From a virus, in the IMG/VR virus record IMGVR_UViG_3300042453_004434, positions 1 through 64,000 of that record: a stretch of 64,000 bases of DNA, one strand, 5' to 3'. Position 1 is the stretch's first letter; each line of letters opens with the position of its first letter. Of this stretch, positions 20,567 to 35,851 are shown in pieces. The notes beneath the pieces are model-generated. The model saw nothing but the letters and a program-made list of their open reading frames with translations, was not told the DNA's origin and searched no databases. Position numbers and translations under genes: made by a program.

Positions 20567-20583
20567 TTGGCACGATACTTGCT
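20567..20583 (+). promoter_or_regulatory. sigma54 consensus site (first of many)
   Basis: TTGGCACGATACTTGCT = TGGCAC-N5-TTGC. Confidence 0.7.
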
Positions 20584-20634
20584 CTCGACAGTGTGAACGC
20601 TGTCCAGGTCTGAAAAAAATCTGTGCAGAAGTTG

Positions 20635-20663
20635 TTGACGGATCGGCGTCCGTCCTGTAGGCT
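20635..20663 (+). promoter_or_regulatory. sigma70-type early promoter, repeated with variants before most cassette genes
   Basis: TTGACG-N17-TAGGCT, with the ATG 9 nt after the -10. Confidence 0.8.
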
Positions 20664-20672
20664 ATAGCCACA

Positions 20673-20798
20673 ATGAATCACGACAAGAGCCTCCTCGAAA
20701 AAGTCAACGACACCATCGTTATCTTCACCGTGACGGTCTTCTACTGCATCCCTTTCTTCGGCATGGGCTACGGTATCGGTACCGGAATCTTCGGCTGA
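20673..20798 (+). CDS. 41-aa single-TM peptide, copy 1
   Basis: MNHDKSLLEKVNDTIVIFTVTVFYCIPFFGMGYGIGTGIFG directly after the promoter; three copies. Confidence 0.75.
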   Translation: MNHDKSLLEKVNDTIVIFTVTVFYCIPFFGMGYGIGTGIFG

Positions 20799-20854
20799 AA
20801 CTCTGCACAGAAGTTGTTGACACCCTGAACTCCAACCTGTAAGCTGTAAGCACA

Positions 20855-21073
20855 ATGAAACACGAAATGACAGTGACTCTGAACAACATCCGCGTTGGCG
20901 ACATTATTCCTGCCGGTTCCTTTGGTATGGGATTCGATGACGTGACGGTTACCGAGATCGGTCCTGACGAGGACTATGGAAACACGATGCGGATCGTGGT
21001 TGTCGGCCCGAAGGGTCGGAGCATCTACTGCCGATCCTTCGGCGGTCGAGACATCACCGTGATCCGCAACTGA
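20855..21073 (+). CDS. small early protein (SH3-like beta barrel)
   Basis: own TTGACA-N17-TAAGCT promoter; 72 aa. Confidence 0.75.
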   Translation: MKHEMTVTLNNIRVGDIIPAGSFGMGFDDVTVTEIGPDEDYGNTMRIVVVGPKGRSIYCRSFGGRDITVIRN

Positions 21074-21117
21074 AAAGACCGGTTGACAAGGGTCAAATAC
21101 CTGATACCTTTTGACGC

Positions 21118-21276
21118 ATGAACAACGAATTGCTCGATCCTCAGTCTGAAGTCCAATCGCTCGCCGTTGTCTCAACGGAAGAGCTTCCCGGCTACGCGGA
21201 GTGGCTTGCCGAGTGTGAGGCTCAACTGGATCCCGATTGGATCTCAAGCTGGGCCAAACACTTGGGCGAATACTGA
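21118..21276 (+). CDS. 52-aa acidic peptide, paralog 1
   Basis: MNNELLDPQSEVQSLAVVSTEELPGYAEWLAECEAQLDPDWISSWAKHLGEY after a TTGACA promoter. Confidence 0.7.
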   Translation: MNNELLDPQSEVQSLAVVSTEELPGYAEWLAECEAQLDPDWISSWAKHLGEY

Positions 21277-21381
21277 AAACAATCTTCGTGCCAAGTGAAG
21301 CTTGGCATGAAACTTGTTTCCTGAAAAATCTGCACAGAAGTTGTTGACGGATCGGCGTCCGTCCTGTAGGCTATAGCCACA

Positions 21382-21507
21382 ATGAATCACGACAAGAGCC
21401 TCCTCGAAAAAGTCAGCGACACCATCGTTATCTTCACCGTGACGGTCTTCTACTGCATCCCTTTCTTCGGCATGGGCTACGGTATCGGCACCGGAATCTT
21501 CGGCTGA
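21382..21507 (+). CDS. 41-aa single-TM peptide, copy 2
   Basis: near-identical to 20673..20798 (N12S). Confidence 0.75.
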   Translation: MNHDKSLLEKVSDTIVIFTVTVFYCIPFFGMGYGIGTGIFG

Positions 21508-21563
21508 AACTCTGCACAGAAGTTGTTGACACCCTGAACTCCAACCTGTAAGCTGTAAGCACA

Positions 21564-21740
21564 ATGAATACGGAAAACGAAAACATGATCAAGGTTGACG
21601 GTGACATCGATGGTTGCGACATGATCGACATGCTCGAAGAACAAGACTATCGGAACATGAACTCTTCTGAAGCTTCCCCTTCTTACTTGTGGTGTCACGA
21701 TCAAGAGAAAGGTGAGCAGGAAGGTTTCTTCAAAAACTGA
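21564..21740 (+). CDS. 58-aa acidic peptide
   Basis: MNTENENMIKVDGDIDGCDMIDMLEEQDY...FFKN, behind a promoter identical to that of 20855. Confidence 0.7.
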   Translation: MNTENENMIKVDGDIDGCDMIDMLEEQDYRNMNSSEASPSYLWCHDQEKGEQEGFFKN

Positions 21741-21788
21741 ACGAAACTTGTTGACGGATCGGCATCCCTCCTGTAAGCTGTAGGCACA

Positions 21789-21944
21789 ATGAACAACGAA
21801 CTTCTCGATCCGCAGTCTGAAGTCCAATCGCTCGCCGTTGTCTCAACGGAGGAAATTGAGAGCAACGACAAGTGGTTTGCCGAGTGTGATGCAGAACGAG
21901 ACGAATGGGAGTGGGAAGATCTTCAGCAAATGGCCGAAGACTAA
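21789..21944 (+). CDS. 51-aa acidic peptide, paralog 2
   Basis: first 22 aa identical to the 21118 peptide; divergent, very acidic C-terminus. Confidence 0.7.
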   Translation: MNNELLDPQSEVQSLAVVSTEEIESNDKWFAECDAERDEWEWEDLQQMAED

Positions 21945-21988
21945 GAGCAACTCCCGTGCCAAGTGAAGCTTGGCATGAAACTTGCTGT

Positions 21989-22045
21989 GGGGCCCCTCCT
22001 TCTGTAAGTCCTTGATACTGAGGGACTTACAGAAGCGGAGGTCCC
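21989..22045. repeat. 57-bp palindromic core R1
   Basis: GGGGCCCC...GTAAGTCCTTGATACTGAGGGACTTAC...degenerate right box. Confidence 0.9.
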
Positions 22046-22162
22046 CTAGCAACTATCGTGCCAACACAGATTTTCCAGGCGATTGGCATGAAACTTGTTT
22101 CCTGAAAAATCTGCACAGAAGTTGTTGACGGATCGGCGTCCGTCCTGTAGGCTATAGCCACA

Positions 22163-22288
22163 ATGAATCACGACAAGAGCCTCCTCGAAAAAGTCAGCGA
22201 CACCATCGTTATCTTCACCGTGACGGTCTTCTACTGCATCCCTTTCTTCGGCATGGGCTACGGTATCGGCACCGGAATCTTCGGTTGA
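22163..22288 (+). CDS. 41-aa single-TM peptide, copy 3
   Basis: same peptide as copy 2, same promoter. Confidence 0.75.
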   Translation: MNHDKSLLEKVSDTIVIFTVTVFYCIPFFGMGYGIGTGIFG

Positions 22289-22328
22289 AAATCTCCTAAT
22301 AGCGGATCCTTGGCATGGGTCTTGCTAT

Positions 22329-22385
22329 GGGGCCCCTCCTTGCGTAAGTCCTTGATACTGAGAGACTTACAGAAGGTGGGGCCCC
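22329..22385. repeat. 57-bp palindromic core R2
   Basis: GGGGCCCC-N41-GGGGCCCC. Confidence 0.9.
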
Positions 22386-22547
22386 GTAGCAATCTTCGTG
22401 CCAACTTGATCTTGGCATGACTTCTGCTCCCCCAGCAACCTTCGTGCCAAGAGCTATTGTCCAGGCGATTGGCATGAAACTTGTTTCTAGAAAATCGTAT
22501 ACAGAAGTATTGACCAGGAACGAGCCGCCCTGTAGGCTAGGGCCACA

Positions 22548-22736
22548 ATGAAAACGCAGTACGTCACCTTCACCAACAAGTCTGGCAATCGCCTCACGAT
22601 CCCCACCCGCGTGTCCTTTTCCAAGTCTGGGCAGCCGCTCTCGGCTTACCCTCAAGATTTGAAGGCCGACGATATGTGGCACTACACGATGGCAGTTCAA
22701 TCTCAAATTGGATTTGTTACTGTTCGTTGGGGCTGA
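22548..22736 (+). CDS. small early protein
   Basis: ATG 9 nt after TTGACC-N17-TAGGCT. Confidence 0.7.
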   Translation: MKTQYVTFTNKSGNRLTIPTRVSFSKSGQPLSAYPQDLKADDMWHYTMAVQSQIGFVTVRWG

Positions 22737-22784
22737 TACTTAATTCTCTTTTAATAACAACATAACATAACAATACAACACAAT

Positions 22785-22997
22785 ATGGATAACGGTGTTA
22801 AATATCTTGTAAATGCAGATGACTTTGTTTCAACTCGTATTGCTTTGCAGAATGCGAAATTGAATATTGCAGAATTGATTGCGGTTTATCAATTAACTTC
22901 TCCAAGTTCAAATATCGATTCTCTCATTCGGCAGAAGAATGAATTGGATGCTTTGTTGAATAAACTTGATTATCATAATCTCAACTTGTCTCGTTAA
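22785..22997 (+). CDS. small helical protein, distant paralog of 25309 and 26338
   Basis: CA-rich leader; similar ELxxLLxKxxY C-terminus. Confidence 0.6.
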   Translation: MDNGVKYLVNADDFVSTRIALQNAKLNIAELIAVYQLTSPSSNIDSLIRQKNELDALLNKLDYHNLNLSR

Positions 22998-23173
22998 TAT
23001 ATATATGCATATCAATGTTAATTGCTTTGTTCGTTTTGATAATGAATGGTTTGTTGTTGAACAGATATGTTCAGAATCAATTCGAGTAAGAAATGTGGAT
23101 AATGGATGTTCAAATTGGGCATTTATATATGAAATTGATGAAGTTAAATATGTAAATTGAAATAATATATATA

Positions 23174-23291
23174 TACCAATTTGTATATATATGGTTCAGA
23201 TTTGAATCAATATAGTTCAGATTTGAATGAATATGATTCAAATTTGAATCAATTTGATTCCAATTTGCTCAATTATCGCTCAAATTTGTAA
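23174..23291. repeat. six phased 21-bp AT-rich repeats
   Basis: TTCA(G/A)ATTTGAAT-like units at 23174, 23195, 23216, 23237, 23258 and 23279. Confidence 0.75.
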
Positions 23292-23357
23292 ATAAATAGT
23301 TCAATTAAATAGAAAGCAAGAAACGTGCCAATCTGCACTTGGCATGACTCTTGCTAT

Positions 23358-23414
23358 GGGGCCCCACCTTACGTAAGTCGTTGATACTGAGGGACTTACA
23401 AAAAGAGGGGCCCC
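23358..23414. repeat. 57-bp palindromic core R3
   Basis: GGGGCCCC-N41-GGGGCCCC. Confidence 0.9.
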
Positions 23415-23520
23415 CCAGCAATGTTCGTGCCAAACTCAAAAAACCAGGTGATTTTTTCTGACGAAAATCTGCACAGAAGTTGTTGACGCATCGGCGTCCA
23501 TCCTGTAGGCTGTAGCCACA

Positions 23521-23697
23521 ATGAAACACGAAATGCAAATCAAGATCCTCTGGCACGTTCTCACTCTCAGCAAGCCCGGCTTCCTTTGGAAGTTCGAGTG
23601 CGAAGTCTCCGATGAGACGGAGGCTGAAGAAATCGCCCAGTACATCCGCGACACCACCACGAACGCCGGAGTGAAGGTTGTCGAAGTTTGGGTGTAA
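23521..23697 (+). CDS. 58-aa early protein
   Basis: MKHEMQIKILWHVLTLSKPGFLWKFECEVSDETEAEEIAQYIRD...; own promoter; first five codons shared with 20855. Confidence 0.7.
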   Translation: MKHEMQIKILWHVLTLSKPGFLWKFECEVSDETEAEEIAQYIRDTTTNAGVKVVEVWV

Positions 23698-23738
23698 ATA
23701 CTAGTTGACCATTGCTAATCTCTTGCTAATCTAATCCT

Positions 23739-24116
23739 ATGCGAAAATTACTTGCTATCCTGCTCGTCTCGTTCTCTGTCTCTGCTGCCGATCTCAACGC
23801 CTTTCTCGATGCTGTCGCGAAGGTCGAGAGCAGCAACAATCCGAAGGCCGTCAACAAGAAAGAAAGCGCTTTCGGCCTATACCAAATCCGCCCCGCGTAC
23901 TTCAAAGACTCGGGCGTGAAGGCAAAGCATGGCGACGTTTTCAAGCCTGACGTAGCCAAGAAGGTGGTGCTCGCCTACTTCCAGAAATATGAGCCCACTG
24001 CATTGAAAAACCTTGACTTTGAGACTCTCGCTCGTTGTCACAATGGTGGGTGTGGTTGGCGCAGGAACAAGTCAGCTACCAATGGCTACTGGCAGAAAGT
24101 GAAAAAGAATCTTTGA
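23739..24116 (+). CDS. secreted lysozyme-like protein (i-type/destabilase-like or lytic transglycosylase)
   Basis: signal peptide, AKVESS catalytic Glu, GLYQI, ARCHNGG. Confidence 0.75.
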   Translation: MRKLLAILLVSFSVSAADLNAFLDAVAKVESSNNPKAVNKKESAFGLYQIRPAYFKDSGVKAKHGDVFKPDVAKKVVLAYFQKYEPTALKNLDFETLARCHNGGCGWRRNKSATNGYWQKVKKNL

Positions 24117-24146
24117 CACCCACAAAAAATCTGATACCTTTTTCTT

Positions 24147-24356
24147 ATGTCAGACTTAAAATTGATTGCAAATCTATTGAATAAATATGGGCGCAATTTC
24201 TTTGCTAAGTGTCCCAGATATAAAACGGCAAAATATAAAAATGAATATGTGAGTCTAATCAGTTTCGATACTAATGATTTGTATTTTTATATAGAGAAGA
24301 TTGATAAAAGCAGAGATTGTGTGAAAGTTACTGAATTAAATGATTTTGGATTGTAA
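24147..24356 (+). CDS. hypothetical protein
   Basis: own TTGACA promoter just upstream. Confidence 0.6.
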   Translation: MSDLKLIANLLNKYGRNFFAKCPRYKTAKYKNEYVSLISFDTNDLYFYIEKIDKSRDCVKVTELNDFGL

Positions 24357-24358
24357 AT

Positions 24359-24625
24359 ATGATTGCAACAATTAAACAAAACAAAATAGGCCATTTGCAC
24401 GTTTGGTTTGGCGATGTAAATATCATCGAAGTCAGTAAATACAATTATCTTTCTAATGGTAAAGAAAGTGATTTATATATACAAAACAAAAAAGATATTG
24501 AATGTTTTTTAGATGATATAAATAGTGATGACGCCAAAATGATTTGTGATGGTTATACTGTAAAGACAGAAGTGTTTGATGAATACGCTGAAATGATAAA
24601 TAAAGCAATTTTCGTGCCAACCTAG
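24359..24625 (+). CDS. hypothetical protein; its last codons lie in the R4 flank
   Basis: 88-aa ORF ending in a sigma54-motif repeat (KAIFVPT*). Confidence 0.6.
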   Translation: MIATIKQNKIGHLHVWFGDVNIIEVSKYNYLSNGKESDLYIQNKKDIECFLDDINSDDAKMICDGYTVKTEVFDEYAEMINKAIFVPT

Positions 24626-24645
24626 ACTTGGCATGGGACTTGCTT

Positions 24646-24702
24646 GGGGCCCCTCCTTGCGTAAGTCGTTGATACTGAGGGACTTACAGAAGGTGGGGCC
24701 CC
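24646..24702. repeat. 57-bp palindromic core R4
   Basis: GGGGCCCC-N41-GGGGCCCC. Confidence 0.9.
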
Positions 24703-24861
24703 GTAGCAACTATAGTGCCAACATGATCTTGGCATGATTTTTGCCCCAGCAATCTTCGTGCCAACAGTGATTTTCCAGGCGATTGGCATGAAACTTGTTT
24801 CTGAAAATATCTGTGCAGAAGTATTGACCAGGAACCAGCCTTCCGATAGGCTATAGCCACA

Positions 24862-25083
24862 ATGAAGGCCACAATGAATACAAACAACTATCCGTCAGTT
24901 ACGATCACTTTCTGCGAAACCCAAATCGAAGTTTGGTATCGCGTTTCTCTTTCTAACAATGTTTTCATCATGGAGATGAAACCAGTTGATAATGTTTCAA
25001 TAGAAGATTGGGATTGGATTTGTTCTCGGGCAAAGCATTATGAACAAATCGAAGAGTTGATTGCATTTGAAATTAACAATTAA
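24862..25083 (+). CDS. small early protein, paralog of 26052
   Basis: NNYPSVTITFCETQIEVWYRVSLS shared with 26052. Confidence 0.75.
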   Translation: MKATMNTNNYPSVTITFCETQIEVWYRVSLSNNVFIMEMKPVDNVSIEDWDWICSRAKHYEQIEELIAFEINN

Positions 25084-25097
25084 TAATAATAACACAT

Positions 25098-25250
25098 ATG
25101 GACAACAATATTGAAATTGGATTGGCGCAGATTGAAGTTGAGGAAGTGATTACTGAAGATTCAAATCCGACTTGGCCTGATGACAGCAACAACAACATGG
25201 ATCAATATCTAAGTTTGGAAGCGGCAACTGAAATCATGTTTCCTTTCTAA
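25098..25250 (+). CDS. 50-aa acidic peptide ending in FPF
   Basis: MDNNIEIGLAQIEVEEVITEDSNPTWPDDSNNNMDQYLSLEAATEIMFPF; CA-rich leader. Confidence 0.6.
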   Translation: MDNNIEIGLAQIEVEEVITEDSNPTWPDDSNNNMDQYLSLEAATEIMFPF

Positions 25251-25308
25251 TGTACATTTTACTAATCATCTGCATTGTCATTGTACTAATAAATAAAACA
25301 AACAACAT

Positions 25309-25533
25309 ATGAGTGAACATAAATACGCTTTTAACTATGTAATCGATCCGCGCAAATTGATTAGTTTGCACGTTGCGGTTGAACTTCTAATTGTCAGGCT
25401 GGAAGAGCAGATTAAGAAAGAAGAATTGAGTAATGAGTCTTACTTTTCTAAATATAAACAAGAATTGGAGCAATTACTAATTGATACTGACTATTCCAAT
25501 TTGAAATATGCTAATACGACAAATGTAAACTAA
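25309..25533 (+). CDS. small protein, paralog of 26338
   Basis: MSEHK...LHVA...SKYK.EL.QLL shared with 26338. Confidence 0.75.
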   Translation: MSEHKYAFNYVIDPRKLISLHVAVELLIVRLEEQIKKEELSNESYFSKYKQELEQLLIDTDYSNLKYANTTNVN

Positions 25534-25583
25534 TAACCTGAGCAGGAACCGTGCCAACTGAGGGTTGGCATGGAACTTGCTGT

Positions 25584-25640
25584 GGGGCCCCACCTTGCGT
25601 AAGTCCTTGATACTGAGGGACTTACAGAAGCGGGGGTCCC
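25584..25640. repeat. 57-bp palindromic core R5
   Basis: GGGGCCCC-N41-GGGGTCCC. Confidence 0.9.
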
Positions 25641-25817
25641 CAAAAAAATCAAGAGGTTTTTTTCGGTATTTTCCAGGTACTTGGCATGACTTCTGCTCCC
25701 CCAGCAATCTTCGTGCCAACAGCGATTGTCCAGGCGATTGGCATGAAACTTGTTTCCTGAAAAATCTGTCTGGAAGATGTTGACGGATCGGCGTCCATCA
25801 TGTAGGCTATAGCCACA

Positions 25818-26027
25818 ATGAAGGACGACATGAGTACAGAACACATCAGAGTTACAGACTACGAAATCGACGACGACGGCGCACTATACGTCACCGAGGC
25901 GTTCGACAGCAACGCCAACCGTCTTCTGAACTGGAACGAGATTCGTGATCTCAATGCCAATGTTGAGTTTATGGAAAACTTCAGCGAACAGCGCGTCGCA
26001 TTTTACGACGAAGAATACAACGCCTAA
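25818..26027 (+). CDS. small acidic early protein
   Basis: ATG 9 nt after TTGACG-N17-TAGGCT. Confidence 0.7.
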   Translation: MKDDMSTEHIRVTDYEIDDDGALYVTEAFDSNANRLLNWNEIRDLNANVEFMENFSEQRVAFYDEEYNA

Positions 26028-26051
26028 CAATTAACAATAACAACACACACA

Positions 26052-26270
26052 ATGAATAGAAATAACTATCCTTCAGTAATAATAACTTTCTGCGAAACTG
26101 AGCTTCAAGTTTGGTATCGCGTTTCTCTCTCCAAGGGCATTTGCATCATGGATATGGAAGCTCTTGACAAGAACATCTCCAAAGAAGATTGGAATTGGAT
26201 TTGTTCTGAAATCAAACATCATGAACAGATCGAACAAATAGTGGCTGATATTGTTAATAACGAATACTAA
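26052..26270 (+). CDS. small early protein, paralog of 24862
   Basis: clear sequence similarity to 24862. Confidence 0.75.
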   Translation: MNRNNYPSVIITFCETELQVWYRVSLSKGICIMDMEALDKNISKEDWNWICSEIKHHEQIEQIVADIVNNEY

Positions 26271-26337
26271 TACAATATAAAATTTTTAATTATCCTTTTG
26301 CTTCTTGCTTTTTTAATTCATACTAAATAAACAACAT

Positions 26338-26559
26338 ATGAGCGAACATAAACATTACTATAAATATATAATCAATCCTCCCGAGTTGGTTGCTTTGCAC
26401 GTTGCGGCTGAAATGTTAATTTCTAAACTTGATCAGCAAATAAAAGATCAAGAATTGGATAATAATTCTTTTGCTTCTAAATATAAATCAGAATTGCAAC
26501 AATTGCTAAACAAGACTCACTATTGCAATTTGGAACGCATCAATGCAAATGTAGATTAA
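26338..26559 (+). CDS. small protein, paralog of 25309
   Basis: clear sequence similarity to 25309. Confidence 0.75.
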   Translation: MSEHKHYYKYIINPPELVALHVAAEMLISKLDQQIKDQELDNNSFASKYKSELQQLLNKTHYCNLERINANVD

Positions 26560-26609
26560 TAAACTGAGCAAGACCCGTGCCAACCTGGACTTGGCACGAA
26601 ACTTGCTGT

Positions 26610-26666
26610 GGGGCCCCTCCTTGTGTAAGTCGTTGATAATCAAGGACTTACAAAAAGGGGGGCCCC
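26610..26666. repeat. 57-bp palindromic core R6
   Basis: centre GTAAGTCGTTGATAATCAAGGACTTAC holds two perfect WATCAANNNNTTR sites. Confidence 0.9.
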
Positions 26667-26807
26667 AAAAAAATCAAGAAATTTTTTTCGGTATTTTCCA
26701 GGCGCTTGGCACGGCTTCTGCTCCCCAGCAAGAGTCATGCCAACATCACAAAAAAGAAAAATGCAAAAAAAGCTTGTTGCCTCCCTTGTCAAGCCTAAGA
26801 TACTCGC

Positions 26808-26993
26808 ATGATTCATAACTGGATTCCCCGCAGCCTTCGATGGTCTGCTGACGAACGAAAACAGAAAGAAACGCAAGCTCGAAACGCTCGCGAAAACGCA
26901 AGGAAAATCTGGCTGGAAAAGGAAAAAACCAGGCAGCAAATTGAGCGCGAAATCTTGCAAAAAGTCCTTGCACGTCGGGCGCTCCTCGACTAG
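26808..26993 (+). CDS. small basic helical protein
   Basis: 61-aa ORF with a promoter-like upstream sequence. Confidence 0.55.
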   Translation: MIHNWIPRSLRWSADERKQKETQARNARENARKIWLEKEKTRQQIEREILQKVLARRALLD

Positions 26994-27005
26994 TCTCTTC
27001 TCAAC

Positions 27006-27635
27006 ATGAAACTTGCACAAGCGATTGAATACGTGGGCGGATTTTCCGCTCCCTCAAAAATGCCCTGTCATGGGTTCAGCATCCCGGCGCGGTATTGCAA
27101 AACGGGGCAGAAGCTCCGTGAAGTTGCTGGTAGCATCTGCTCTAAGTGCTACGCTCTGAAGGGACGATACGGTTTCCCGAACGTGCAGAACGCGCTCGAA
27201 AGGCGCTTCGCCAACCTGAAAAACGATCTGTGGGTTCAGGCCATGACGATTGCGATCCGGGGAACCGAGTCAAGCGGTTTCTTCAGGTGGCATGATTCCG
27301 GCGACATCCAAGATGTCGCGCATCTTGACAAAATCGTGCAGGTTGCTCGCAACCTGCCGGAAATCAAGTTCTGGCTGCCGACTCGGGAGTACGGTGTCGT
27401 TTCGGAATGGGTCAAGGCAAATGGTGCGTTGCCTGAAAATCTGACGATCAGGCTTTCGGCTCTGATGTTGGAAGGTCAACCTCCGGTTGGAATCGCCAAC
27501 CGATTGGGTTTGACAACCTCGGGAGTTTCAAAGACGGGTTTCACTTGTCCGTCTTCGGCTCAGGGGAACAAGTGCCTGACTTGTCGGGCCTGTTGGGACA
27601 AGTCCGTCCAAAACGTCAACTACAAAACTCACTGA
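27006..27635 (+). CDS. GP88-like protein (Cys-rich, radical-SAM-like phage family)
   Basis: SKMPC...C...CSKCYA, FRWHDSGD, FWLPTRE, C-terminal CP...CLTCRACWD. Confidence 0.8.
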   Translation: MKLAQAIEYVGGFSAPSKMPCHGFSIPARYCKTGQKLREVAGSICSKCYALKGRYGFPNVQNALERRFANLKNDLWVQAMTIAIRGTESSGFFRWHDSGDIQDVAHLDKIVQVARNLPEIKFWLPTREYGVVSEWVKANGALPENLTIRLSALMLEGQPPVGIANRLGLTTSGVSKTGFTCPSSAQGNKCLTCRACWDKSVQNVNYKTH

Positions 27636-27695
27636 AAAAATGTTGTTTCTGGTCTTGACGGTGGCGTTGCTTCTGGTAATCTGTTCTCAACAAAA

Positions 27696-27881
27696 ATGAA
27701 ATACGAATTGATTGTTGAAACCGAAGCCTGCACGTCTTTCTTTACTTTCCCGCACAATCGCGAAGGTTCAACGGCAGCTTTTGAAAAACTTGGATCCTTC
27801 ATCACAAAGGATGAGTTTAGATCCGCAAAAATCGTGAGCAATCGCGACAATGTGATTTTCGAGTTTCCTTCTAAAAACTAA
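27696..27881 (+). CDS. hypothetical protein
   Basis: own TTGACG-N17-TAATCT promoter. Confidence 0.6.
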   Translation: MKYELIVETEACTSFFTFPHNREGSTAAFEKLGSFITKDEFRSAKIVSNRDNVIFEFPSKN

Positions 27882-27895
27882 ACAAACAACATATC

Positions 27896-28141
27896 ATGCA
27901 CACAATTAAAAAGTACATTGCACCGTTTGAAGTTATCAATTATACTCGCGAAGACGGCAATCAAGCTGTATATAAAGTTTTCCGTCTTTCAAAGCATCTT
28001 TTTCGTAATAAAAAGAAAGACGAAAATAGAATTGTCGGTTTCAAAGCCTGGAAATTGGCAAATACCGGCGCAAATCAAAAAGCAGGTTGGCGCAGTTTTC
28101 GATTTGATCGAATTAATGAAATTGAGCTTGCTTTCTTTTAA
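27896..28141 (+). CDS. WYL-like/SH3-fold small protein
   Basis: INYTREDG...GWRSFRFDRI. Confidence 0.65.
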   Translation: MHTIKKYIAPFEVINYTREDGNQAVYKVFRLSKHLFRNKKKDENRIVGFKAWKLANTGANQKAGWRSFRFDRINEIELAFF

Positions 28142-28329
28142 TATAATTTTGTTGGAAAAAAGACGATAAAGCAATGGCATGGTGTGCAAGGAGATCTTGC
28201 AACGGGATTGTGTTATGGCCTATTGAAACACCATTGCTTTTTTAATTAAAAAAAATTAAAATAAATTAATAAATAAAAATAGCGCGAGCAATTTTCATGC
28301 CAACCGGCACTTGGCACGGCAATTGCTGT

Positions 28330-28386
28330 GGGGCCCCACCTTTTGTAAGTCGTTGATATTCAAGGACTTACGCAAGGAGGGGCCCC
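28330..28386. repeat. 57-bp palindromic core R7
   Basis: GGGGCCCC-N41-GGGGCCCC, followed by an extra IHF-like palindrome. Confidence 0.9.
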
Positions 28387-28569
28387 ATGCGTAAACCCTT
28401 GATAATCAAGGGGTTACAAAAGCTAAAACTCCAGGTTAACGGTAACTATCGAACTATTTATCTATTTATATATCACTATTTAGCTATTTGTATTTAACTA
28501 TTTAGCGATCACTATTTAAGTATTTAAATAAAAAACCCTCAATTTTTTAGATTGAGGGCGATTGTTTAT

Positions 28570-28767
28570 TTATTTAACTGGATTTTTTGTATAACTTACA
28601 TCAATTACTTCTTCAATTATAGTAAAGCTATCTTTTTCAGCATCAAAATCATCATTATGAACTAACCAATTATGAATATCAATAGGATCTAATTTAACAT
28701 CAGATTTGAAATGATACCCAATAGTTGGGCCGTTGCGATATTCAACAATAGCAATTTGTTTGTTCAT
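28570..28767 (-). CDS. hypothetical protein
   Basis: likely start MNKQI at 28767; terminator-like hairpin downstream. Confidence 0.55.
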   Translation of the reverse strand: MNKQIAIVEYRNGPTIGYHFKSDVKLDPIDIHNWLVHNDDFDAEKDSFTIIEEVIDVSYTKNPVK

Positions 28768-28768
28768 A

Positions 28769-29023
28769 TTAGTAGAAGAAGATGCGCGACTCGTCAGGAA
28801 AGGTAACAGGAAGAGTGTCGCGGTCAACACCAAATGTGGTTCCAGGCGTCACATCAGACTTGGACAAATATCCAAATCCTTTGTAATTACCCGTCTGCAT
28901 GAGAAGATCTCCCACGAAATACTGTAGAGCTATTCGCTGATCCGCAAAGTCATTCTTGCTGTTCTGGAAGAATCGGTTTGCTTGTTCTCTGATGTTCTCA
29001 ACTGGAATGGTTTTTCGTTTCAT
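28769..29023 (-). CDS. hypothetical phage protein
   Basis: 84 aa, LMQTGNYKGFGYL. Confidence 0.65.
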   Translation of the reverse strand: MKRKTIPVENIREQANRFFQNSKNDFADQRIALQYFVGDLLMQTGNYKGFGYLSKSDVTPGTTFGVDRDTLPVTFPDESRIFFY

Positions 29024-29177
29024 ACAAATAATTTTTTACCTTGTACCGTCAACGCTGAGACTGAATCTACTGGAACACCGCGCCTTGTAAAGGATTTTTT
29101 ATTGGAATCGTACTCTAAAACGCCCCCATAAAATCCTACAGGAGACTTGACAGTCCAACCGACAACGTATCCGTTGT

Positions 29178-29540
29178 TCAGCGTGACTTGCGTGAGGTGG
29201 AGCGAACCAACTTTTTTGTCTTTTTTCCACTTGCCACCTTCTTCAACTTCGACTTGGTGGTTGTCTTCTTCTTGGTAGCGGAAACGGATTTTTTGCATAG
29301 ATTTTTTGTTTGATTTTCTTCTTGCTTTTTCTTTTTGGCAAACTCGCCGTAGTGATATGCTCGACCGCGAAGTCCTAGCTTTTGCTGATCTTCTGTGATG
29401 AAGCCACGACGAATCTCCCACTTTTTAAAAGCGTCGTCAATCATTTTATATGTGCCATCTGGAAGGTCTAAAGAATAGATGCCATCCATGCTGACATCAT
29501 ATCTGTTTGTAATACGCGATTTAAATTGACTATCACTCAT
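29178..29540 (-). CDS. basic protein with a Lys-rich histone-H1-like tail
   Basis: likely start MSDSQ; C-terminus KKSVSATKKKTTTKSKLKKVASGKKTKK. Confidence 0.55.
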   Translation of the reverse strand: MSDSQFKSRITNRYDVSMDGIYSLDLPDGTYKMIDDAFKKWEIRRGFITEDQQKLGLRGRAYHYGEFAKKKKQEENQTKNLCKKSVSATKKKTTTKSKLKKVASGKKTKKLVRSTSRKSR

Positions 29541-29675
29541 TGTATGTAAATCCCTTGTAGAAAAAATAAATACCAATACAAATTAATAAACAAAGCAAAA
29601 ACATTATCTACTTATTCTTTTGTTGATAGATTGTGATTAATAATGCGCAAACAATAATAAACAATAAATACATAA

Positions 29676-29867
29676 TTAAACAGGAGGAAGAACTTGCTCA
29701 AACTCTATTGCGCGTCCACTCAGATCACGAATGAGTTCACGGGACACAGTATCAAGAGTCTTGCGCCCAGTCAACTGAATAAATATGGCTTCCTGCGCTT
29801 TGTCGATGAACTTCTCGCGGGGAACACCATAGATGTGCTGAACATAGTACTTAATTTTAGTCTGCAT
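29676..29867 (-). CDS. hypothetical protein
   Basis: 63-aa ORF with a CA-rich leader. Confidence 0.6.
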   Translation of the reverse strand: MQTKIKYYVQHIYGVPREKFIDKAQEAIFIQLTGRKTLDTVSRELIRDLSGRAIEFEQVLPPV

Positions 29868-29947
29868 TTTTATTCCTTTTGTATTGTTTTTTACTTGGTA
29901 TTGTTTTTGTTGGAGGCGGAAGAGGCTTTCTAATTTTCTTAAATATC

Positions 29948-30454
29948 TCAGATTGTGATGGCAACTTTTTCATTTAATTTATCCCAAATAATGTATTGCT
30001 TACAATACTTGCAATAGTAATTTCTTTTACCAGATTGAATTGCGTTATGCTTGTATGTAGTTAGATAAATCTTTTTATCGCACTTGCAAGAATAAACATG
30101 ATCTGTTTTTACTTCAAAGTCGTGGCAACGAGTTGCCGATTGGCCGATAACTTGCATAACTTTCTTCCATTCGGCACCATGTGAAGAAATGAACATACCA
30201 TAAACTTGTCGCGAAATTAAATGTGCAGCTTCGTGACCCGGAGTATCATCAATAAATGCTTGTCCATTCTGAATTAAAAGAACATTGTTCAATCGAATTA
30301 GATTATGATGGTAATAAGCAACACCAGCACGGCGACCGCCCAAATTAAACTCAACAGTAGGAAATGGAAACTTTGCATTATAAACTGATTCGCAAATTGA
30401 ATATACGTTTTGTATTCTAACTAAGCAAGCGTTTTGTAATTCAGTTACATTCAT
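29948..30454 (-). CDS. SprT-like zinc metalloprotease
   Basis: RRAGVAY, HEAAH, HGAEWK, YSCKC...CKYC; likely start MNVTE. Confidence 0.9.
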   Translation of the reverse strand: MNVTELQNACLVRIQNVYSICESVYNAKFPFPTVEFNLGGRRAGVAYYHHNLIRLNNVLLIQNGQAFIDDTPGHEAAHLISRQVYGMFISSHGAEWKKVMQVIGQSATRCHDFEVKTDHVYSCKCDKKIYLTTYKHNAIQSGKRNYYCKYCKQYIIWDKLNEKVAITI

Positions 30455-30611
30455 CGCAATCAAAGTATCACCTTGTACTGCAAGGCACAAGGGATTTTTG
30501 TCGCCTGAACAACTTTTTTTTGAGGCACTTGGCACGAAACTTGTTGTTGACAACCTGGAGTTTCTTCAGAGAGAAACCAACGTAAGTCGTTGTCTTTCAA
30601 CGACTTGCGTT

Positions 30612-30668
30612 GGGGCCCCTCTTTGCGTAAGTCGTTGATATTCAAGGACTTACAAAAGGTGGGGCCCC
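30612..30668. repeat. 57-bp palindromic core R8
   Basis: GGGGCCCC-N41-GGGGCCCC, preceded by an extra palindrome. Confidence 0.9.
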
Positions 30669-30892
30669 AAAAAAATCAAGAGATTTTTTTTGGTATTCTC
30701 CAGGTAGTTGGCACGGTTTATGCTCCCAGCAATGGGAATGCCAAATCATAGTTGGCATGAAAATTGATTTCTTGACCAGGATTTTTTTTGGTGAAGCAAA
30801 AATATCTGAGAAAAGTTGTTGTAGCCGCATAGGAAATCGTACACACTGTACCCGCAGTTCGATTCAACAACTAACCAAAAGGAAAACACAGT

Positions 30893-31924
30893 ATGCCAGC
30901 AAACATTGAAAATCGTGACGTTCAGGCCGGACTTGAGATGGCTTGGCACGGTATGACCAAGATCGTTCCCGTCATCAACTTCGCTGACGCCTTTCCATTT
31001 GAAATTGAAAAGCGTCAACTGGTTGACAGCGAGGACGGCACCCCAATCGAAGGAGAGTATTACTTTCGCAGCACTGACGACAAGAAGAAGATCGGCAAGA
31101 CCCTTCCTGATTCTTATGTCGCAATCTCAAACGCTCGTTTTTGGGAAATCGTGCAGAACGCGGTTGGTGGCACTGGCGCCGTCATCGAATCCGCTGGAAC
31201 GGTTTTCGACCGTTGCCGCCGATTCGTGACTGTCAAACTCCAGACCGATCTTGATACGTTCAAGGTGGGTGATCGTGAGTTCAAGAATCGATTCTCCCTG
31301 CTGGACAGCATCGACCAGAGCACGAATCTGTACGGCGTGAACAGCAGCACCTGCGTCGTCTGCTCGAATACCTTCGCGATGGCGATGGGCGACAGGTCCG
31401 GCGAGTTCCGTTTCAAGCTGCGGCACTCGAAGAATCTTGTGCCCAAGATCGAGAACATGGAGAAGGCCATCGATCAGTTCATCGGTGTCACCGCCCAGTT
31501 CCAGCAGGCGATGAAGATCGCGAATGAGATCCCGGTCAAGCTGGATCAGGCTCGTCCGCTCTTTGCTGGTTGGATCGCTGAAGAGACCAATGGGCTATCC
31601 ACTCGTTCATTCAACACTGTCGGGCGTTTGACCGAGTTGTTCACTCGGGGTGCTGGAAATCGCGGCGAGACCCTGCTCGACGCTTTCAGCGCGGTGACTG
31701 ACTTCTATTCGCACGAATCGAGCGGCGGTCAGGATCAACCGGGGTTCCGAATGAAGCAGACCATCTCCAGCGACTTTGGCGCAGCGTCCAAGCGAAAGCA
31801 GGACTTCTTCGGCCAGATCTTCGACGTGGATAAGGAAGTGACGTTCAATCGGGATCGGTTCACCAATCTGGTCAGCAACGGTCGCAACCTCATCAGCGCG
31901 ATGGAAGCGGTTACCGCGAACTGA
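30893..31924 (+). CDS. DUF932 (phage/plasmid TIGR03299-like) protein
   Basis: AWHG, Y..ISN, IESAG, VVCSNT, RHS, AVTDFYSH; GC-rich codons. Confidence 0.8.
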   Translation: MPANIENRDVQAGLEMAWHGMTKIVPVINFADAFPFEIEKRQLVDSEDGTPIEGEYYFRSTDDKKKIGKTLPDSYVAISNARFWEIVQNAVGGTGAVIESAGTVFDRCRRFVTVKLQTDLDTFKVGDREFKNRFSLLDSIDQSTNLYGVNSSTCVVCSNTFAMAMGDRSGEFRFKLRHSKNLVPKIENMEKAIDQFIGVTAQFQQAMKIANEIPVKLDQARPLFAGWIAEETNGLSTRSFNTVGRLTELFTRGAGNRGETLLDAFSAVTDFYSHESSGGQDQPGFRMKQTISSDFGAASKRKQDFFGQIFDVDKEVTFNRDRFTNLVSNGRNLISAMEAVTAN

Positions 31925-31938
31925 ACCAGTCAAGCAAG

Positions 31939-31967
31939 AATCCTCCCGCAAGGGAGGATTTTTTTTT
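31939..31967 (+). terminator. intrinsic terminator
   Basis: AATCCTCCC-GCAA-GGGAGGATT plus T-tract. Confidence 0.9.
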
Positions 31968-32054
31968 GCGGTTGGCACGTCTTTTACGCTTGACAACCTG
32001 GAGATGCTCCTGGGAAAACCCAACGTAAGTCGTTGTCTTCCAACGAGTTACGTT

Positions 32055-32111
32055 GGGGCCCCTCCTTACGTAAGTCGTTGATATTCAAGGACTTACAAAA
32101 GGTGGGGCCCC
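32055..32111. repeat. 57-bp palindromic core R9
   Basis: GGGGCCCC-N41-GGGGCCCC with extra palindromes on both sides. Confidence 0.9.
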
Positions 32112-32409
32112 ATCGTAAGTCCTTGATAATCAAGGGTTTACAAAAGCACTTTTTCAATTTTATCGATAAAGTGACATTATAAGTCAAACTACTTTTTAAT
32201 ATATATATAGTTTATATTTATACTTATTTAATACTTATTTGTTTATTTATTACTAGCTTATATAGTTATATTTGTATATATGTTATTTGACTATGTATTA
32301 TTTGCCTATATATAGATCAGTTATTTGGAAAAAAATCATTCAGCTATAAAAGAAAAAACCTACCAGGTTTTACCCTGATAGGTTTCACACACGGTTTTTA
32401 GTTGATTAT

Positions 32410-35665: not shown

Positions 35666-35851
35666 TTATTTTTTCTTCAACAACTTATTAACAATTTTAC
35701 TTCGCTCTTCAAAAGAAAAAGAAGCTAGATTTTGTGGCGGAATCTGGTCCATCTTCATTCTTTTCCAGATTTGATTATAAACACACCAAAAACTAACAGT
35801 TCCATCCTTGTGGAACGTTAGCTCTTGATCAGACTTGATCAGCGGTTGCAT
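35666..35851 (-). CDS. hypothetical protein
   Basis: likely start MQPLI directly after a TTGACA-N17-AATGAT promoter. Confidence 0.55.
   Translation of the reverse strand: MQPLIKSDQELTFHKDGTVSFWCVYNQIWKRMKMDQIPPQNLASFSFEERSKIVNKLLKKK

Follow-up and report, generated by a model that had tools for sequence, protein, structure and literature searches.

Hairpin cores, sigma-54-type boxes and promoter-like units in a gene cassette array of an uncultured lake phage

The sequence analysed here, referred to as the window, comprises 64 kb (positions 1-64,000) of IMG/VR record IMGVR_UViG_3300042453_004434, derived from an uncultured lake phage. It contains nine cores, R1 to R9, all of them intergenic and all exactly 57 bp long, found at each of the nine starts proposed in a first-pass annotation of the same DNA. 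The intervals between cores hold 1 to about 7 small ORFs, in line with the one to about six genes given there. A relative that is 90-95% identical, G002, has 11 cores to the window's 9.

Nine hairpin cores and their sigma-54-type boxes

The nine cores are the following.

21989..22045, +, R1, right GC box degenerate; word match
22329..22385, +, R2, exact pattern match; RNA fold computed
23358..23414, +, R3, exact pattern match
24646..24702, +, R4, exact pattern; same sequence as two G002 cores
25584..25640, +, R5, right GC box GGGGTCCC; word match
26610..26666, +, R6, exact pattern; sole core with two IHF-type matches
28330..28386, +, R7, exact pattern; between convergent gene blocks
30612..30668, +, R8, exact pattern; between divergent genes
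32055..32111, +, R9, exact pattern; no sigma-54 box nearby

The annotated spacing, GGGGCCCC-N41-GGGGCCCC with a degenerate right box in R1 and R5 (GAGGTCCC and GGGGTCCC, respectively), was recovered exactly in seven of the nine cores, with 0 matches in 100 shuffles (0 expected); all 16 GGGGCCCC words of the window lie within the nine elements (0.05 expected). Since GGGGCCCC is its own reverse complement, two copies form both a direct and an inverted repeat, and the "palindrome" is thus partly automatic. The elements themselves are real, and two details of their first description required correction: the right half claimed for all of them, CAAGGACTTAC, occurs in R6-R9 only, whereas R1-R5 read CTGAG(G/A)GACTTAC, so that their apical part is non-palindromic; the second correction, of the twin IHF-like sites, is given below.

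Within about 10 kb (20.5-30.8 kb) lie 35 sigma-54-type boxes, against one elsewhere in the window. They match the sigma-54 recognition pattern. T precedes TGGCA in 35/35 boxes, G follows TGGCAY in 33/35, and TTGC or TTGT stands at fixed spacing, whereas the spacer between these recognition elements varies freely; spacers of paired boxes show no complementarity beyond that of the conserved positions (41 of 95). The boxes are listed below, pairs before single boxes.

21278..21318, unstranded, back-to-back box pair (41 nt) without a core; G002 has a core directly after it
21946..21986, unstranded, back-to-back pair left of R1; right-hand box directed at the core from 2 nt away
22388..22428, unstranded, back-to-back pair right of R2; left-hand box directed at the core from 2 nt away
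23315..23355, unstranded, back-to-back pair left of R3
24604..24644, unstranded, back-to-back pair left of R4; overlaps the 3' end of ORF 24359-24625
24705..24745, unstranded, back-to-back pair right of R4
25541..25581, unstranded, back-to-back pair left of R5
26567..26607, unstranded, back-to-back pair left of R6; outer edge is the right junction of a replaced cassette
28287..28327, unstranded, back-to-back pair left of R7
30728..30768, unstranded, back-to-back pair 59 nt right of R8
20568..20583, +, lone sigma-54-type box marking the array's left edge
22048..22063, -, single box right of R1, facing the core at 2 nt
22084..22099, +, box pointing at genes, with TTGTT at -12; 41 nt ahead of the TTGAC of the next promoter unit
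22311..22326, +, single box left of R2, facing the core at 2 nt
22434..22449, -, lone box, 48 nt to the right of R2
22470..22485, +, box pointing at genes, 40 nt ahead of promoter unit
23417..23432, -, single box right of R3, facing the core at 2 nt
24748..24763, -, lone box, 45 nt to the right of R4
24784..24799, +, box pointing at genes, 40 nt ahead of promoter unit
25682..25697, +, weaker box to the right of R5, with CTGC at -12
25703..25718, -, lone box, 62 nt to the right of R5
25739..25754, +, box pointing at genes, 41 nt ahead of promoter unit
26707..26722, +, weaker box to the right of R6, with CTGC
26727..26742, -, lone box, 60 nt to the right of R6
30530..30545, +, lone box, 66 nt to the left of R8

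Most boxes point at a hairpin rather than at genes. Of the 11 boxes adjacent to a core, 10 lie 2 nt from it and the remaining one, left of R4, lies 1 nt away. R1-R4 carry inward-facing boxes at both ends, which extend the dyad to about 93 bp (about 95 bp had been estimated); R5-R7 have the left box only, at 2 nt, and R8 and R9 have no adjacent box.

Promoter-like units and cassette rearrangement

Ten 41-nt promoter-like units, each running from TTGAC to ATG and fused to a start codon, precede the cassette genes.

20635..20675, +, unit of gene A; no Shine-Dalgarno; repeat family D3
20817..20857, +, unit of gene B
21344..21384, +, unit of gene A copy 2
21526..21566, +, unit of gene D
21751..21791, +, unit of gene C'
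22125..22165, +, unit after R1, gene A copy 3
22510..22550, +, unit after R2, genes E, F, G
23483..23523, +, unit after R3, genes H, I, J, K
24824..24864, +, unit after R4, genes L, M, N
25780..25820, +, unit after R5, genes O, L', N'; marks where the replaced cassette joins on the left

Cores and promoter-like units alternate: from R1 to R6 there are five successive gene units (A; E-F-G; H-I-J-K; L-M-N; O-L'-N'), each opening, 69-140 nt past a core, with a single promoter-like unit and closing at the next core. The full module reads stop codon, back-to-back boxes, 57-nt hairpin, further boxes, and 41-nt promoter-like unit with its start codon. Gene A is present three times in the window, and C, L and N twice each. 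The cassette genes are ORFans: none of 10 small proteins passed a Pfam family's own cut-off, and the one weak match below cut-off was to DUF7454.

Comparison with relatives bears out the view that this is a cassette array whose content changes at repeated modules. Gene order is A B C core X A core X D A core C' core E... in G002 and A B C (box pair) A D C' R1 A R2 E... in the window, with cassettes duplicated, reordered or replaced. Collinearity breaks at window position 21316, the end of a sigma-54 box, and again on either side of a replaced cassette, at 25831, on a promoter unit's start codon, and at 26567, on the outer edge of the R6 box pair. Contig L062 lacks J and K, with its junction at 24609, the edge of the R4 box pair, and contig L035 lacks O, its promoter unit being joined to L'. 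As to the suggested check of whether content changes exactly at the cores, breaks fall at module edges, no fixed position within the core is used, and some indels involve no core. The cores themselves are mosaic: syntenic cores of G002 and the window differ at 0-10 of 57 positions, and in 5 of 8 syntenic pairs the G002 core is closer to another window core. The G002 core at the R5 position, for instance, differs from R5 at 10 of 57 bases and is identical to R6, and at the R8 position only the inner hairpin has been exchanged.

Folding, IHF-type matches and the wider hairpin family

The hairpin fold is strong on both strands (z -6.4 to -8.4), with RNA folding energies of -37.7 (+) and -35.5 (-) kcal/mol for R2 (z -7.4 and -6.4) and of -40.5 (+) and -36.8 (-) kcal/mol for R6. 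Together with five related contigs, which contributed 21 more sites, all of exactly 57 bp, the window provided an alignment of 30 sites and 19 distinct sequences. Among these 19, core positions 9/49 are never complementary (TT 10, AA 6, TG 2, AG 1), and mismatches are retained at 14/44, 15/43 and 23/35. No Rfam family was recognised, the best match within a core scoring 27.8 bits, where the gathering score is 90.

The IHF-type motif WATCAANNNNTTR occurs on the minus strand once in every core, with a second match in R6 only; the twin sites described for each element thus exist in R6 and not in the other eight. Of 26 matches in the window (12.75 expected), 14 lie inside hairpins of this type, including two in each of the accessory hairpins beside R7 and R9. 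The match is a by-product of the conserved hairpin sequence; the motif is kept in only 152 of 290 family members.

The search of other contigs that the annotation had suggested yielded, besides the 57-mer in the five related contigs, a widespread 27-nt hairpin, GTAAGTC-N13-GACTTAC, present in at least 118 IMG/VR and at least 120 metagenome stretches, usually in the order hairpin, GC-rich linker, hairpin. The 57-mer is a nested, lineage-specific form of this unit. Accessory copies and A/T motifs adjoin the cores of the window.

28391..28417, +, accessory 27-nt hairpin after R7, forming with it the order usual in the family: hairpin, GC box, hairpin
30582..30608, +, accessory 27-nt hairpin ending 3 nt before R8
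32025..32051, +, accessory 27-nt hairpin ending 3 nt before R9
32115..32141, +, accessory 27-nt hairpin after R9
25642..25663, +, A7-N8-T7 motif immediately following R5; repeat family D14
26667..26688, +, A7-N8-T7 motif abutting the 3' side of R6
30669..30691, +, A7-N8-T8 motif abutting the 3' side of R8

Partner hairpins on the same contigs carry GC 66, CG 38, GG 25 and CC 20 times among 191 at positions 5/23, and a compensated stem, GTAACTC...GAGTTAC, occurs 18 times. A sigma-54 box lies within 60 nt of only 46 of 274 family sites. In other lineages it stands about 14-20 nt ahead of the first hairpin, and when the G/G mismatch is used to orient 95 intergenic sites, 23 have the box upstream and 7 have it downstream.

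Interpretation of the modules

Promoter-early stem-loops (PeSLs) of T4-like phages combine a stem-loop, often a G-run, a loop and a C-run, with an early promoter, lie upstream of ORFans in hyperplastic regions and adjoin indels between close relatives; the two reports further describe demonstrated terminator and promoter activity, mini-circles, and a variant on a different promoter class, the PmSL (Arbiol 2010, Comeau 2014; PMC2839356, PMC4122927). We consider it somewhat probable that composite boundary modules split a hyperplastic early region into small transcription units, with the nine elements as their stem-loops, and that they represent a PeSL variant. Both systems place a stem-loop and an early promoter between ORFan cassettes and show modular shuffling, while the window modules add sigma-54 boxes and a conserved GTAAGTC hairpin. 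These two additions were not found in the literature searched, as the first-pass annotation had supposed for the composite element as a whole, but the layout is that of the published PeSL concept. PeSLs come from T4-like phages, whereas T4-like kinship of this phage is not supported by its TerL, which matched the Terminase_6N model only and is 22-26% identical to Bacillus and Clostridium phages.

Several observations count against the boundary-module reading. The -10 hexamer of the promoter-like units (TAGGCT or TAAGCT) agrees with TATAAT at only three of six positions, and the sigma-70 scan consequently made no promoter call; the T-run of an intrinsic terminator is absent from all nine cores, none of which was called terminator-like; indels Y, Z1-Z2 and J fall at ordinary gene boundaries that have no core. 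Selection at the RNA level is unsupported, since the 19 distinct 57-mers contain no compensatory pair changes, and their wobble pairs favour neither strand (18 cells for +, 25 for -). In the wider family, polarity is independent of neighbouring gene direction, and conservation of the stem GTAAGTC...GACTTAC over hundreds of otherwise unrelated contigs, needless for a generic terminator, suggests sequence-specific recognition. Stem conservation over such different contigs and the unbiased wobble pairs also favour a possible, though rather doubtful, alternative in which the module acts as duplex DNA: its boxes would dock host sigma-54 RNA polymerase and regulate, block or sequester transcription complexes, while the GTAAGTC palindrome and GGGGCCCC boxes would serve a conserved protein, of phage or host, as operators or enhancers, and the hairpin need not form. 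The crowding of the boxes, their retained recognition positions around free, non-complementary spacers, their fixed distance from the core and the self-palindromic GGGGCCCC, typical of dimer sites, all agree with it. However, the mismatches kept at positions such as 9/49 are meaningful for a folded strand and not for a duplex, one dimeric protein would not read both the common and the compensated partner stems, most family sites have no box nearby, and Sigma54_activat and Sigma54_DBD were not found in five related records, which are only 17-48% complete.

At sigma-54 promoters transcription usually begins about 12 nt downstream of the box's GC, which here predicts a start at core position 9 and a transcript opening with the inner hairpin. 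Small hairpin RNA genes read from the inward boxes, with the hairpin itself as product, for example a decoy or antisense regulator, would also fit the box positions in other lineages and the upstream excess of 23 to 7, but are improbable: GGGGCCCC, a sequence difficult to melt, would occupy promoter bases -8 to -1, a terminator downstream is lacking, R8, R9 and most family sites lack an adjacent box, and both an Rfam family and compensatory changes are absent. Less probable still is that the cores serve a dedicated recombinase for cassette excision and insertion, either integron-like or an HUH or tyrosine enzyme that reads hairpins and is encoded elsewhere in the genome. Single-strand recombinases read features of imperfect hairpins such as unpaired positions, and the cassette-like layout, the fixed unpaired positions and polar G/G mismatch, the mosaic cores and the restriction of the window to 64 kb of a larger genome are compatible with such an enzyme. 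Yet no integrase, resolvase or Y1/HUH family matched any of 34 of the 36 window ORFs of at least 150 aa (the two left out are antisense ORFs inside the array), as the first-pass annotation had noted; junctions fall in sigma-54 boxes and at module edges, where homology ends, rather than at one core point; exchanges also occur within the core and at core-distant promoter units; cassettes carry their own promoter-like units; and homologous recombination accounts for all of these observations. The cassette array of the earlier interpretation is supported; its integron-like site-specific recombination is not. That the cores are architectural or replication sites bent by IHF is the most improbable reading: an IHF-core match is present in each and iteron-like tandem repeats adjoin R3 and R7, but the match belongs to the conserved stem and is lost from nearly half of the family, nine origins within 10 kb are implausible, and the sites track cassette boundaries one-to-one.

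Under the preferred boundary-module reading, the RNA hairpin (about -36 to -40 kcal/mol) would end, attenuate or 3'-protect the upstream transcript, giving the modules a putative terminator or insulator activity, and the next promoter unit would restart transcription downstream. Because the modules are long, near-identical and partly palindromic, they would lend themselves to general homologous recombination and gene conversion between copies, so that shuffling probably relies on host recombination and not on a dedicated enzyme. Recombination between module copies would delete, duplicate, replace and possibly invert the intervening cassettes, each of which would move with its own signals.

The 57-bp core and its fold

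The nine 57-bp elements that the first-pass annotation had located in the early gene array, with starts at 21989, 22329, 23358, 24646, 25584, 26610, 28330, 30612 and 32055 (the cores R1-R9), were recovered by a pattern count over the window and its shuffled versions. The exact arrangement GGGGCCCC-N41-GGGGCCCC is present in seven of the nine cores and gave no match in 100 shuffles, R1 and R5 having the degenerate right box already described for them; the cores also account for all 16 GGGGCCCC words in the 64 kb, against 0.05 expected. The word GGGGCCCC is self-complementary, and some of the "palindrome" follows from this alone. The fixed length held throughout the window and five related contigs, with 57 bp in 30 of 30 sites (19 distinct sequences). 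Two further details proved to apply to some cores only: the right half CAAGGACTTAC is found in R6-R9 and not in R1-R5, where the apical part is asymmetric, and twin IHF-like sites are confined to R6, the IHF-core pattern WATCAANNNNTTR occurring in all nine cores, twice in R6 and once in each of the other eight. In a wider family of 27-nt hairpins, GTAAGTC-N13-GACTTAC, this pattern is retained at 152 of 290 sites. Extra hairpins of this family accompany R7, R8 and R9, and an A7-N8-T7 motif lies directly 3' of R5, R6 and R8.

Both strands of the core fold strongly (-35.5 to -40.5 kcal/mol, z -6.4 to -8.4). Some folded form, be it of RNA or of extruded DNA, is favored by positions 9/49, which are never complementary (TT in 10, AA in 6, TG in 2 and AG in 1 of 19 sequences), by the retained mismatches 14/44, 15/43 and 23/35, and by the compensated stems of partner hairpins in the same contigs (positions 5/23: GC 66, CG 38, GG 25 and CC 20 of 191). 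Counting against a proven RNA structure, the 19 distinct 57-mers of the lineage have no compensatory changes, and their wobble and A-C cells (18 versus 25, few and non-independent) reveal no strand preference; at pair 9/19 of family sites oriented by sigma-54-type boxes the counts were 8 versus 2, again few and non-independent. Conservation of the stem across lineages suggests that its sequence is read by sequence-specific recognition, which argues against a generic terminator. No intrinsic terminator (GC-rich hairpin followed by a T-run) was called at any of the nine cores, whose 3' tails read CTAGC, GTAGC, CCAGC, A7..., ATGCG and ATCGT. When the cores were compared with Rfam, none came near a gathering score, the best match being mir-2574 with 27.8 bits against a threshold of 90. 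The weak Rfam matches, to a microRNA precursor model on R6 and to a Bacteroides sRNA model at 28530-28612, were set aside as reflecting shape or chance.

Promoter-like units, sigma-54-type boxes and the hairpin family

The core is only the middle part of a larger module, which also includes sigma-54-type boxes and a promoter-like unit. There are ten such units, all borne by cassettes and each measuring exactly 41 nt from TTGAC to ATG; R1-R5 are each followed by one within 69-140 nt, and R6-R9 lack them. Their -35 element (TTGAC) is good, and their -10 element (TAGGCT or TAAGCT) matches the sigma-70 consensus at three of six positions and was not called by the promoter scan. The units contain no Shine-Dalgarno sequence, the ATG standing 9 nt past the -10 element. 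Around sites of the hairpin family, TTGACW hexamers within 150 nt were directed outward 146 times and inward 109 times in 520 flanks, a weak trend only. Iteron-like tandem repeats were also observed in AT-rich DNA, one beside R3 (23178-23304; 21-nt unit, ~6 copies) and one beside R7 (28452-28526; 22-nt unit, ~2.5 copies); a regulator or an initiator could bind these arrays.

Thirty-five boxes of the form TTGGCAYGR-N3-TTGCT are concentrated within 20568-30768, with one weak match elsewhere in the window. They resemble sigma-54 (RpoN) promoters in carrying the GG (-24) and GC (-12) of the sigma-54 consensus at exact spacing. TTGGCA is invariant (35/35), the G at the next-but-one position is found in 33 and the C after TTG in 27; recognition positions are thus kept, and the spacer between the two recognition elements is variable. 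Usual sigma-54 promoters stand upstream of genes, whereas most of these boxes face the palindrome or stand back-to-back and are not positioned to drive a gene. Eleven boxes point at a core from 1-2 nt away, at the left end of R1-R7 (2 nt; 1 nt at R4) and at the right end of R1-R4 (2 nt), and the back-to-back partners of these face away. For the eleven, the region to be melted is GGGGCCCC itself, an 8-bp block 2 nt from the box. Only five boxes (21303, 22084, 22470, 24784 and 25739) face a gene, 40-41 nt before a promoter-like unit, and these carry TTGTT at -12. The ten back-to-back pairs each span exactly 41 nt; that they might be hairpins was ruled out because their spacers are non-complementary beyond the conserved box positions.

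Strict boxes are likewise abundant in the fetched loci, with 176 in 1.63 Mb against ~0.8 expected (the loci overlapping in part) and at least two in 30 of 257 partly overlapping loci. Neither Sigma54_activat nor Sigma54_DBD was found in five related records, each 17-48% complete, and a phage-encoded sigma-54, an activator gene and an upstream activator site were likewise not found, the protein search covering these five fragmentary relatives. The AAA+ protein of the window (56145-57074, minus strand, 309 aa) has a C-terminal winged helix and matches RuvB_C, HTH_24 and clamp-loader PHROGs. Judged by these family matches it is not a sigma-54 activator, no GAFTGA-type loop was seen in its translation, and it may be an initiator or loader.

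Stretches with the inner hairpin, GTAAGTC-N-TTGA-N8-GACTTAC, number at least 118 in IMG/VR and at least 120 in metagenomes. Among the matches listed the usual order is hairpin, GC-rich linker of ~21 nt, hairpin, as in R7 and R9 with their accessory hairpins; in the lineage form (the window and the related contigs G002-G004, L062 and L079) the GC-rich part consists of two GGGGCCCC boxes flanking one hairpin. Of 274 distinct family sites, 112 are mismatched at positions 8/20 by G/G (or C/C); with these oriented G/G, the GC-rich linker is found 3' of the hairpin, which makes the element polar. Compared with this polarity, gene directions on the two sides were mixed, being opposite/opposite at 26 sites, same/opposite at 15, same/same at 14 and opposite/same at 8, with one side missing at 32, as judged from crude ORF calls of at least 70 aa. 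A sigma-54 box lies within 60 nt of only 46 of the 274 sites. The pattern GGGGCCCC-N7-GTAAGTC retrieved 14 IMG/VR stretches, six of them from the lineage (four contigs) and one, L015, that looks distantly similar; the other seven (L007-L010 and L012-L014) were discarded as chance matches.

The hairpin pattern also retrieved 112 stretches from 596 Gb of bacterial genomes, which were rejected as being mostly ordinary hairpins, private repeats of single genomes and phage-like contigs binned into MAGs; no host was inferred from them, and they gave no evidence of a shared bacterial factor. Private multi-copy repeats with a GTAAGTC...GACTTAC stem were seen in a Latescibacterota MAG (L266-L367, where a C-run follows the hairpin), Treponema, Verrucomicrobiae and Planctomycetaceae, and several single bacterial copies directly adjoin tRNA genes. 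These bacterial repeats are probably unrelated hairpins picked by the pattern.

The array and its cassettes in related phages

All copies lie in an array at 20.4-32.2 kb with 37-47% GC and small ORFs, and the window outside it is AT-rich (~26-35% GC). Ten small array proteins were compared with Pfam and none passed the cut-off of a family, the single weak match falling below it; the larger array genes are SLT-like, GP88, SprT-like and DUF932. Of the 58 GGCC sites in the window, 34 fall within the array. Besides the genes below, the window holds many glycosyltransferases, PhoH and four tRNAs.

Selected genes of the window
7186-9051, large terminase (TerL), Terminase_6N, E 8.9e-07
8996-9952, minus strand, ERCC4-type nuclease with N-terminal zinc finger
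11021-11737, minus strand, sigma-70 region 2 protein, 238 aa, E 6.6e-05, 23.1 bits, just below the cut-off of 24
35829-36443, minus strand, HNH endonuclease
49270-49941, minus strand, C-5 cytosine methyltransferase, fragment-like ORF of 223 aa, first 115 model positions matched

The sigma-70 region 2 protein probably acts as a phage sigma factor in the expression of later genes. The best phage relatives of TerL are from Bacillus and Clostridium phages, at 22-26% identity. No GenBank phage record matched the array or single modules at the DNA level, so that neither a cultured relative nor a host was found, and the glycosyltransferase used for the host search (37425-38438) had no relative in the genome collection. 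Among the 24 sequencing runs listed as carrying the phage, 21 are lake-water DNA runs with at least 70% of the sampled words and none is an RNA run. The reported lack of a recombinase in the window was upheld: among the 36 ORFs of 150 aa or longer, 34 were scanned and matched no integrase family, a Y1 transposase was likewise not found, and no nuclease families other than the ERCC4-type and HNH proteins were seen.

The contig G002 (the relative) is 90-95% identical to the window, is collinear with it across 19.0-34.0 kb and has 11 cores compared with nine. With cassette genes denoted by letters and their further copies by primes, the left side of the array reads A B C core X A core X D A core C' core E in the relative and A B C (box pair) A D C' R1 A R2 E in the window, the left 2 kb being rearranged. 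The two cease to be collinear at 21316, where a sigma-54 box ends; from there the relative runs into a core and the window into a promoter leader. Between 25831 (the start codon of a promoter unit) and 26567 (the edge of R6's box pair), O-L'-N' in the window is replaced by Q-N''-N''' in the relative. Contig L062 lacks J and K, its junction at 24609 being the edge of R4's box pair, and L035 lacks O, so that the promoter unit is fused to L'. Other indels coincide with plain boundaries between genes instead of cores: J alone is missing from L079, and Y and Z1-Z2 are further cases in the relative. On the suggested check of whether gene content changes exactly at cores, the junctions at 21316, 24609, 25831 and 26567 fall at module edges, and J, Y and Z1-Z2 are exceptions.

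The cores themselves are mosaic. At matching positions, those of the window and the relative differ at 0-10 of 57 bases, and in five of eight pairs the relative's core is closer to a different core of the window (the one at the R5 position, for instance, equals R6); at the R8 position the difference is confined to the inner hairpin. Together with the module-edge junctions, this is the pattern expected of homologous recombination and gene conversion among repeats, not of cutting at a fixed site.

Several further features of the cassettes were observed. Gene A, a 41-aa hydrophobic, Gly-rich ORF, is present in three near-identical copies (20673-20798, 21382-21507 and 22163-22288), each with its own promoter-like unit, and the relative also has three copies, at other positions; its product resembles a small membrane peptide, and its copy number seems to be in play. 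The interval 28570-30454, between R7 and R8, is the sole minus-strand gene block of the array and has the same orientation in the relative; as the cores are palindromic, recombination between R7 and R8 could invert it. Gene K (24359-24625) encodes 88 aa in the window and 82 aa in the relative; its ORF enters the outward-facing box of R4's left pair, so that the last six codons are module sequence.

Known systems and the reading of the module

The cassette idea of the first-pass annotation, a system with IHF-bent or hairpin recombination sites in an integron-like layout, was right in outline, and its mechanism is most likely a known one rather than an integron-like one. As with integron attC sites, imperfect palindromes of similar length with fixed unpaired bases separate small cassettes. 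Membership fails, however, on the lack of an integrase in the window, on cassettes that carry their own promoter units and on the lack of a fixed junction: there is no intI, attI or common promoter, the core ends are GGGGCCCC and not attC core sites, and junctions fall at module edges and at varying places inside cores, at no fixed nucleotide. REP/BIME elements of enterobacteria are imperfect extragenic palindromes that recur at the 3' ends of transcription units. Roles in recombination, in attenuation and in protecting mRNA 3' ends have been ascribed to them, and some forms (RIP/RIB) bind IHF at a site between inverted copies. They are, however, chromosomal and linked to RAYT transposases, and the cores differ from them in their unrelated sequence, in the lack of a Y1 transposase in the window and in an IHF match that is not family-wide. 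Between the early genes of phage T7 lie RNase III processing hairpins of ~50-60 nt with internal loops, which leave a protective 3' stem on the upstream message. No promoter boxes flank these, whereas they do flank the cores, and the sequences are unrelated.

The layout of the module, by analogy, matches that of the PeSLs (promoter-early stem-loop cassettes) of T4-like phages, in which a stem-loop (often a G-run, loop and C-run) and an early promoter lie upstream of ORFans in hyperplastic regions, beside indels that distinguish close relatives (Arbiol et al. 2010, PMC2839356; Comeau et al. 2014, PMC4122927). According to these papers, PeSLs have terminator and promoter activity, mini-circles have been demonstrated, and a variant, PmSL, is built on another promoter class. 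The likeness extends to a stable intergenic stem-loop with an early promoter immediately before the following gene (R1-R5), to ~100 bp of conserved sequence in many copies within a hyperplastic ORFan region, and to a position beside insertions, deletions and replacements, with shuffling thought to occur by recombination between copies. There are also differences. PeSL stems vary by phage pair, whereas here a compound hairpin has a fixed length of 57 nt and its inner 27 nt are conserved in hundreds of unrelated uncultured-phage contigs; sigma-54-type boxes flank and aim at the stem-loop; the start codon abuts the promoter unit with no Shine-Dalgarno sequence; and the -10 element is poor rather than near the sigma-70 consensus. 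The PeSLs are from T4-like phages, and the TerL of this uncultured phage gave no assignment to that group, its best phage relatives being in Bacillus and Clostridium phages.

The composite had not been recognised as described. Its layout is that of the published PeSLs; the sigma-54-type boxes and the conserved hairpin were not found described in the literature searched. Among the main texts searched on sigma-54 in phages and on the hairpin sequence, no description of the module was found. The sole precedent found for sigma-54 use by a phage was Pseudomonas phage YuA, reported to use sigma-70- and sigma-54-like promoters (PMC10914365, citing Ceyssens 2008), and the topic appears almost unstudied. 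Most likely, then, repeated regulatory modules insulate the units and recombine by homology, and the unexplained, interesting part is the dense array of oriented sigma-54-type boxes together with the conserved hairpin sequence.

The boldest reading that the data allow, and one we consider improbable, is that the modules are traps or roadblocks for host sigma-54 RNA polymerase. Holoenzyme would bind on both sides of the structured palindrome and at the back-to-back pairs; with a box 2 nt from the 8-bp GGGGCCCC block, it would be held in a closed complex that cannot open. Thirty-five such sites, multiplied by replication, would form protein roadblocks insulating neighbouring early cassettes without T-run terminators. 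In addition or instead, the array might soak up sigma-54 and blunt host sigma-54-dependent stress responses. Sigma-54 is tied to the phage-shock and RNA-repair operons. The same repeats would then supply homology for cassette shuffling.

If the PeSL-like reading holds, the PeSL principle, by which the same regulatory repeats wire the early genes and provide the seams for their shuffling, reaches far beyond cultured T4-like coliphages and vibriophages, into large uncultured lake and marine phages that share one hairpin unit across hundreds of contigs. Exchangeable ORFan cassettes, whose genes probably serve host takeover or anti-defence, are delimited by the modules, which could help to locate such cassettes in metagenomes. 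The sigma-54-type boxes, mostly aimed at a palindrome rather than at genes, are the unexpected part; the identity of their reader would reveal either a new phage strategy for exploiting or inactivating a host transcription route, or an insulator of a new type.
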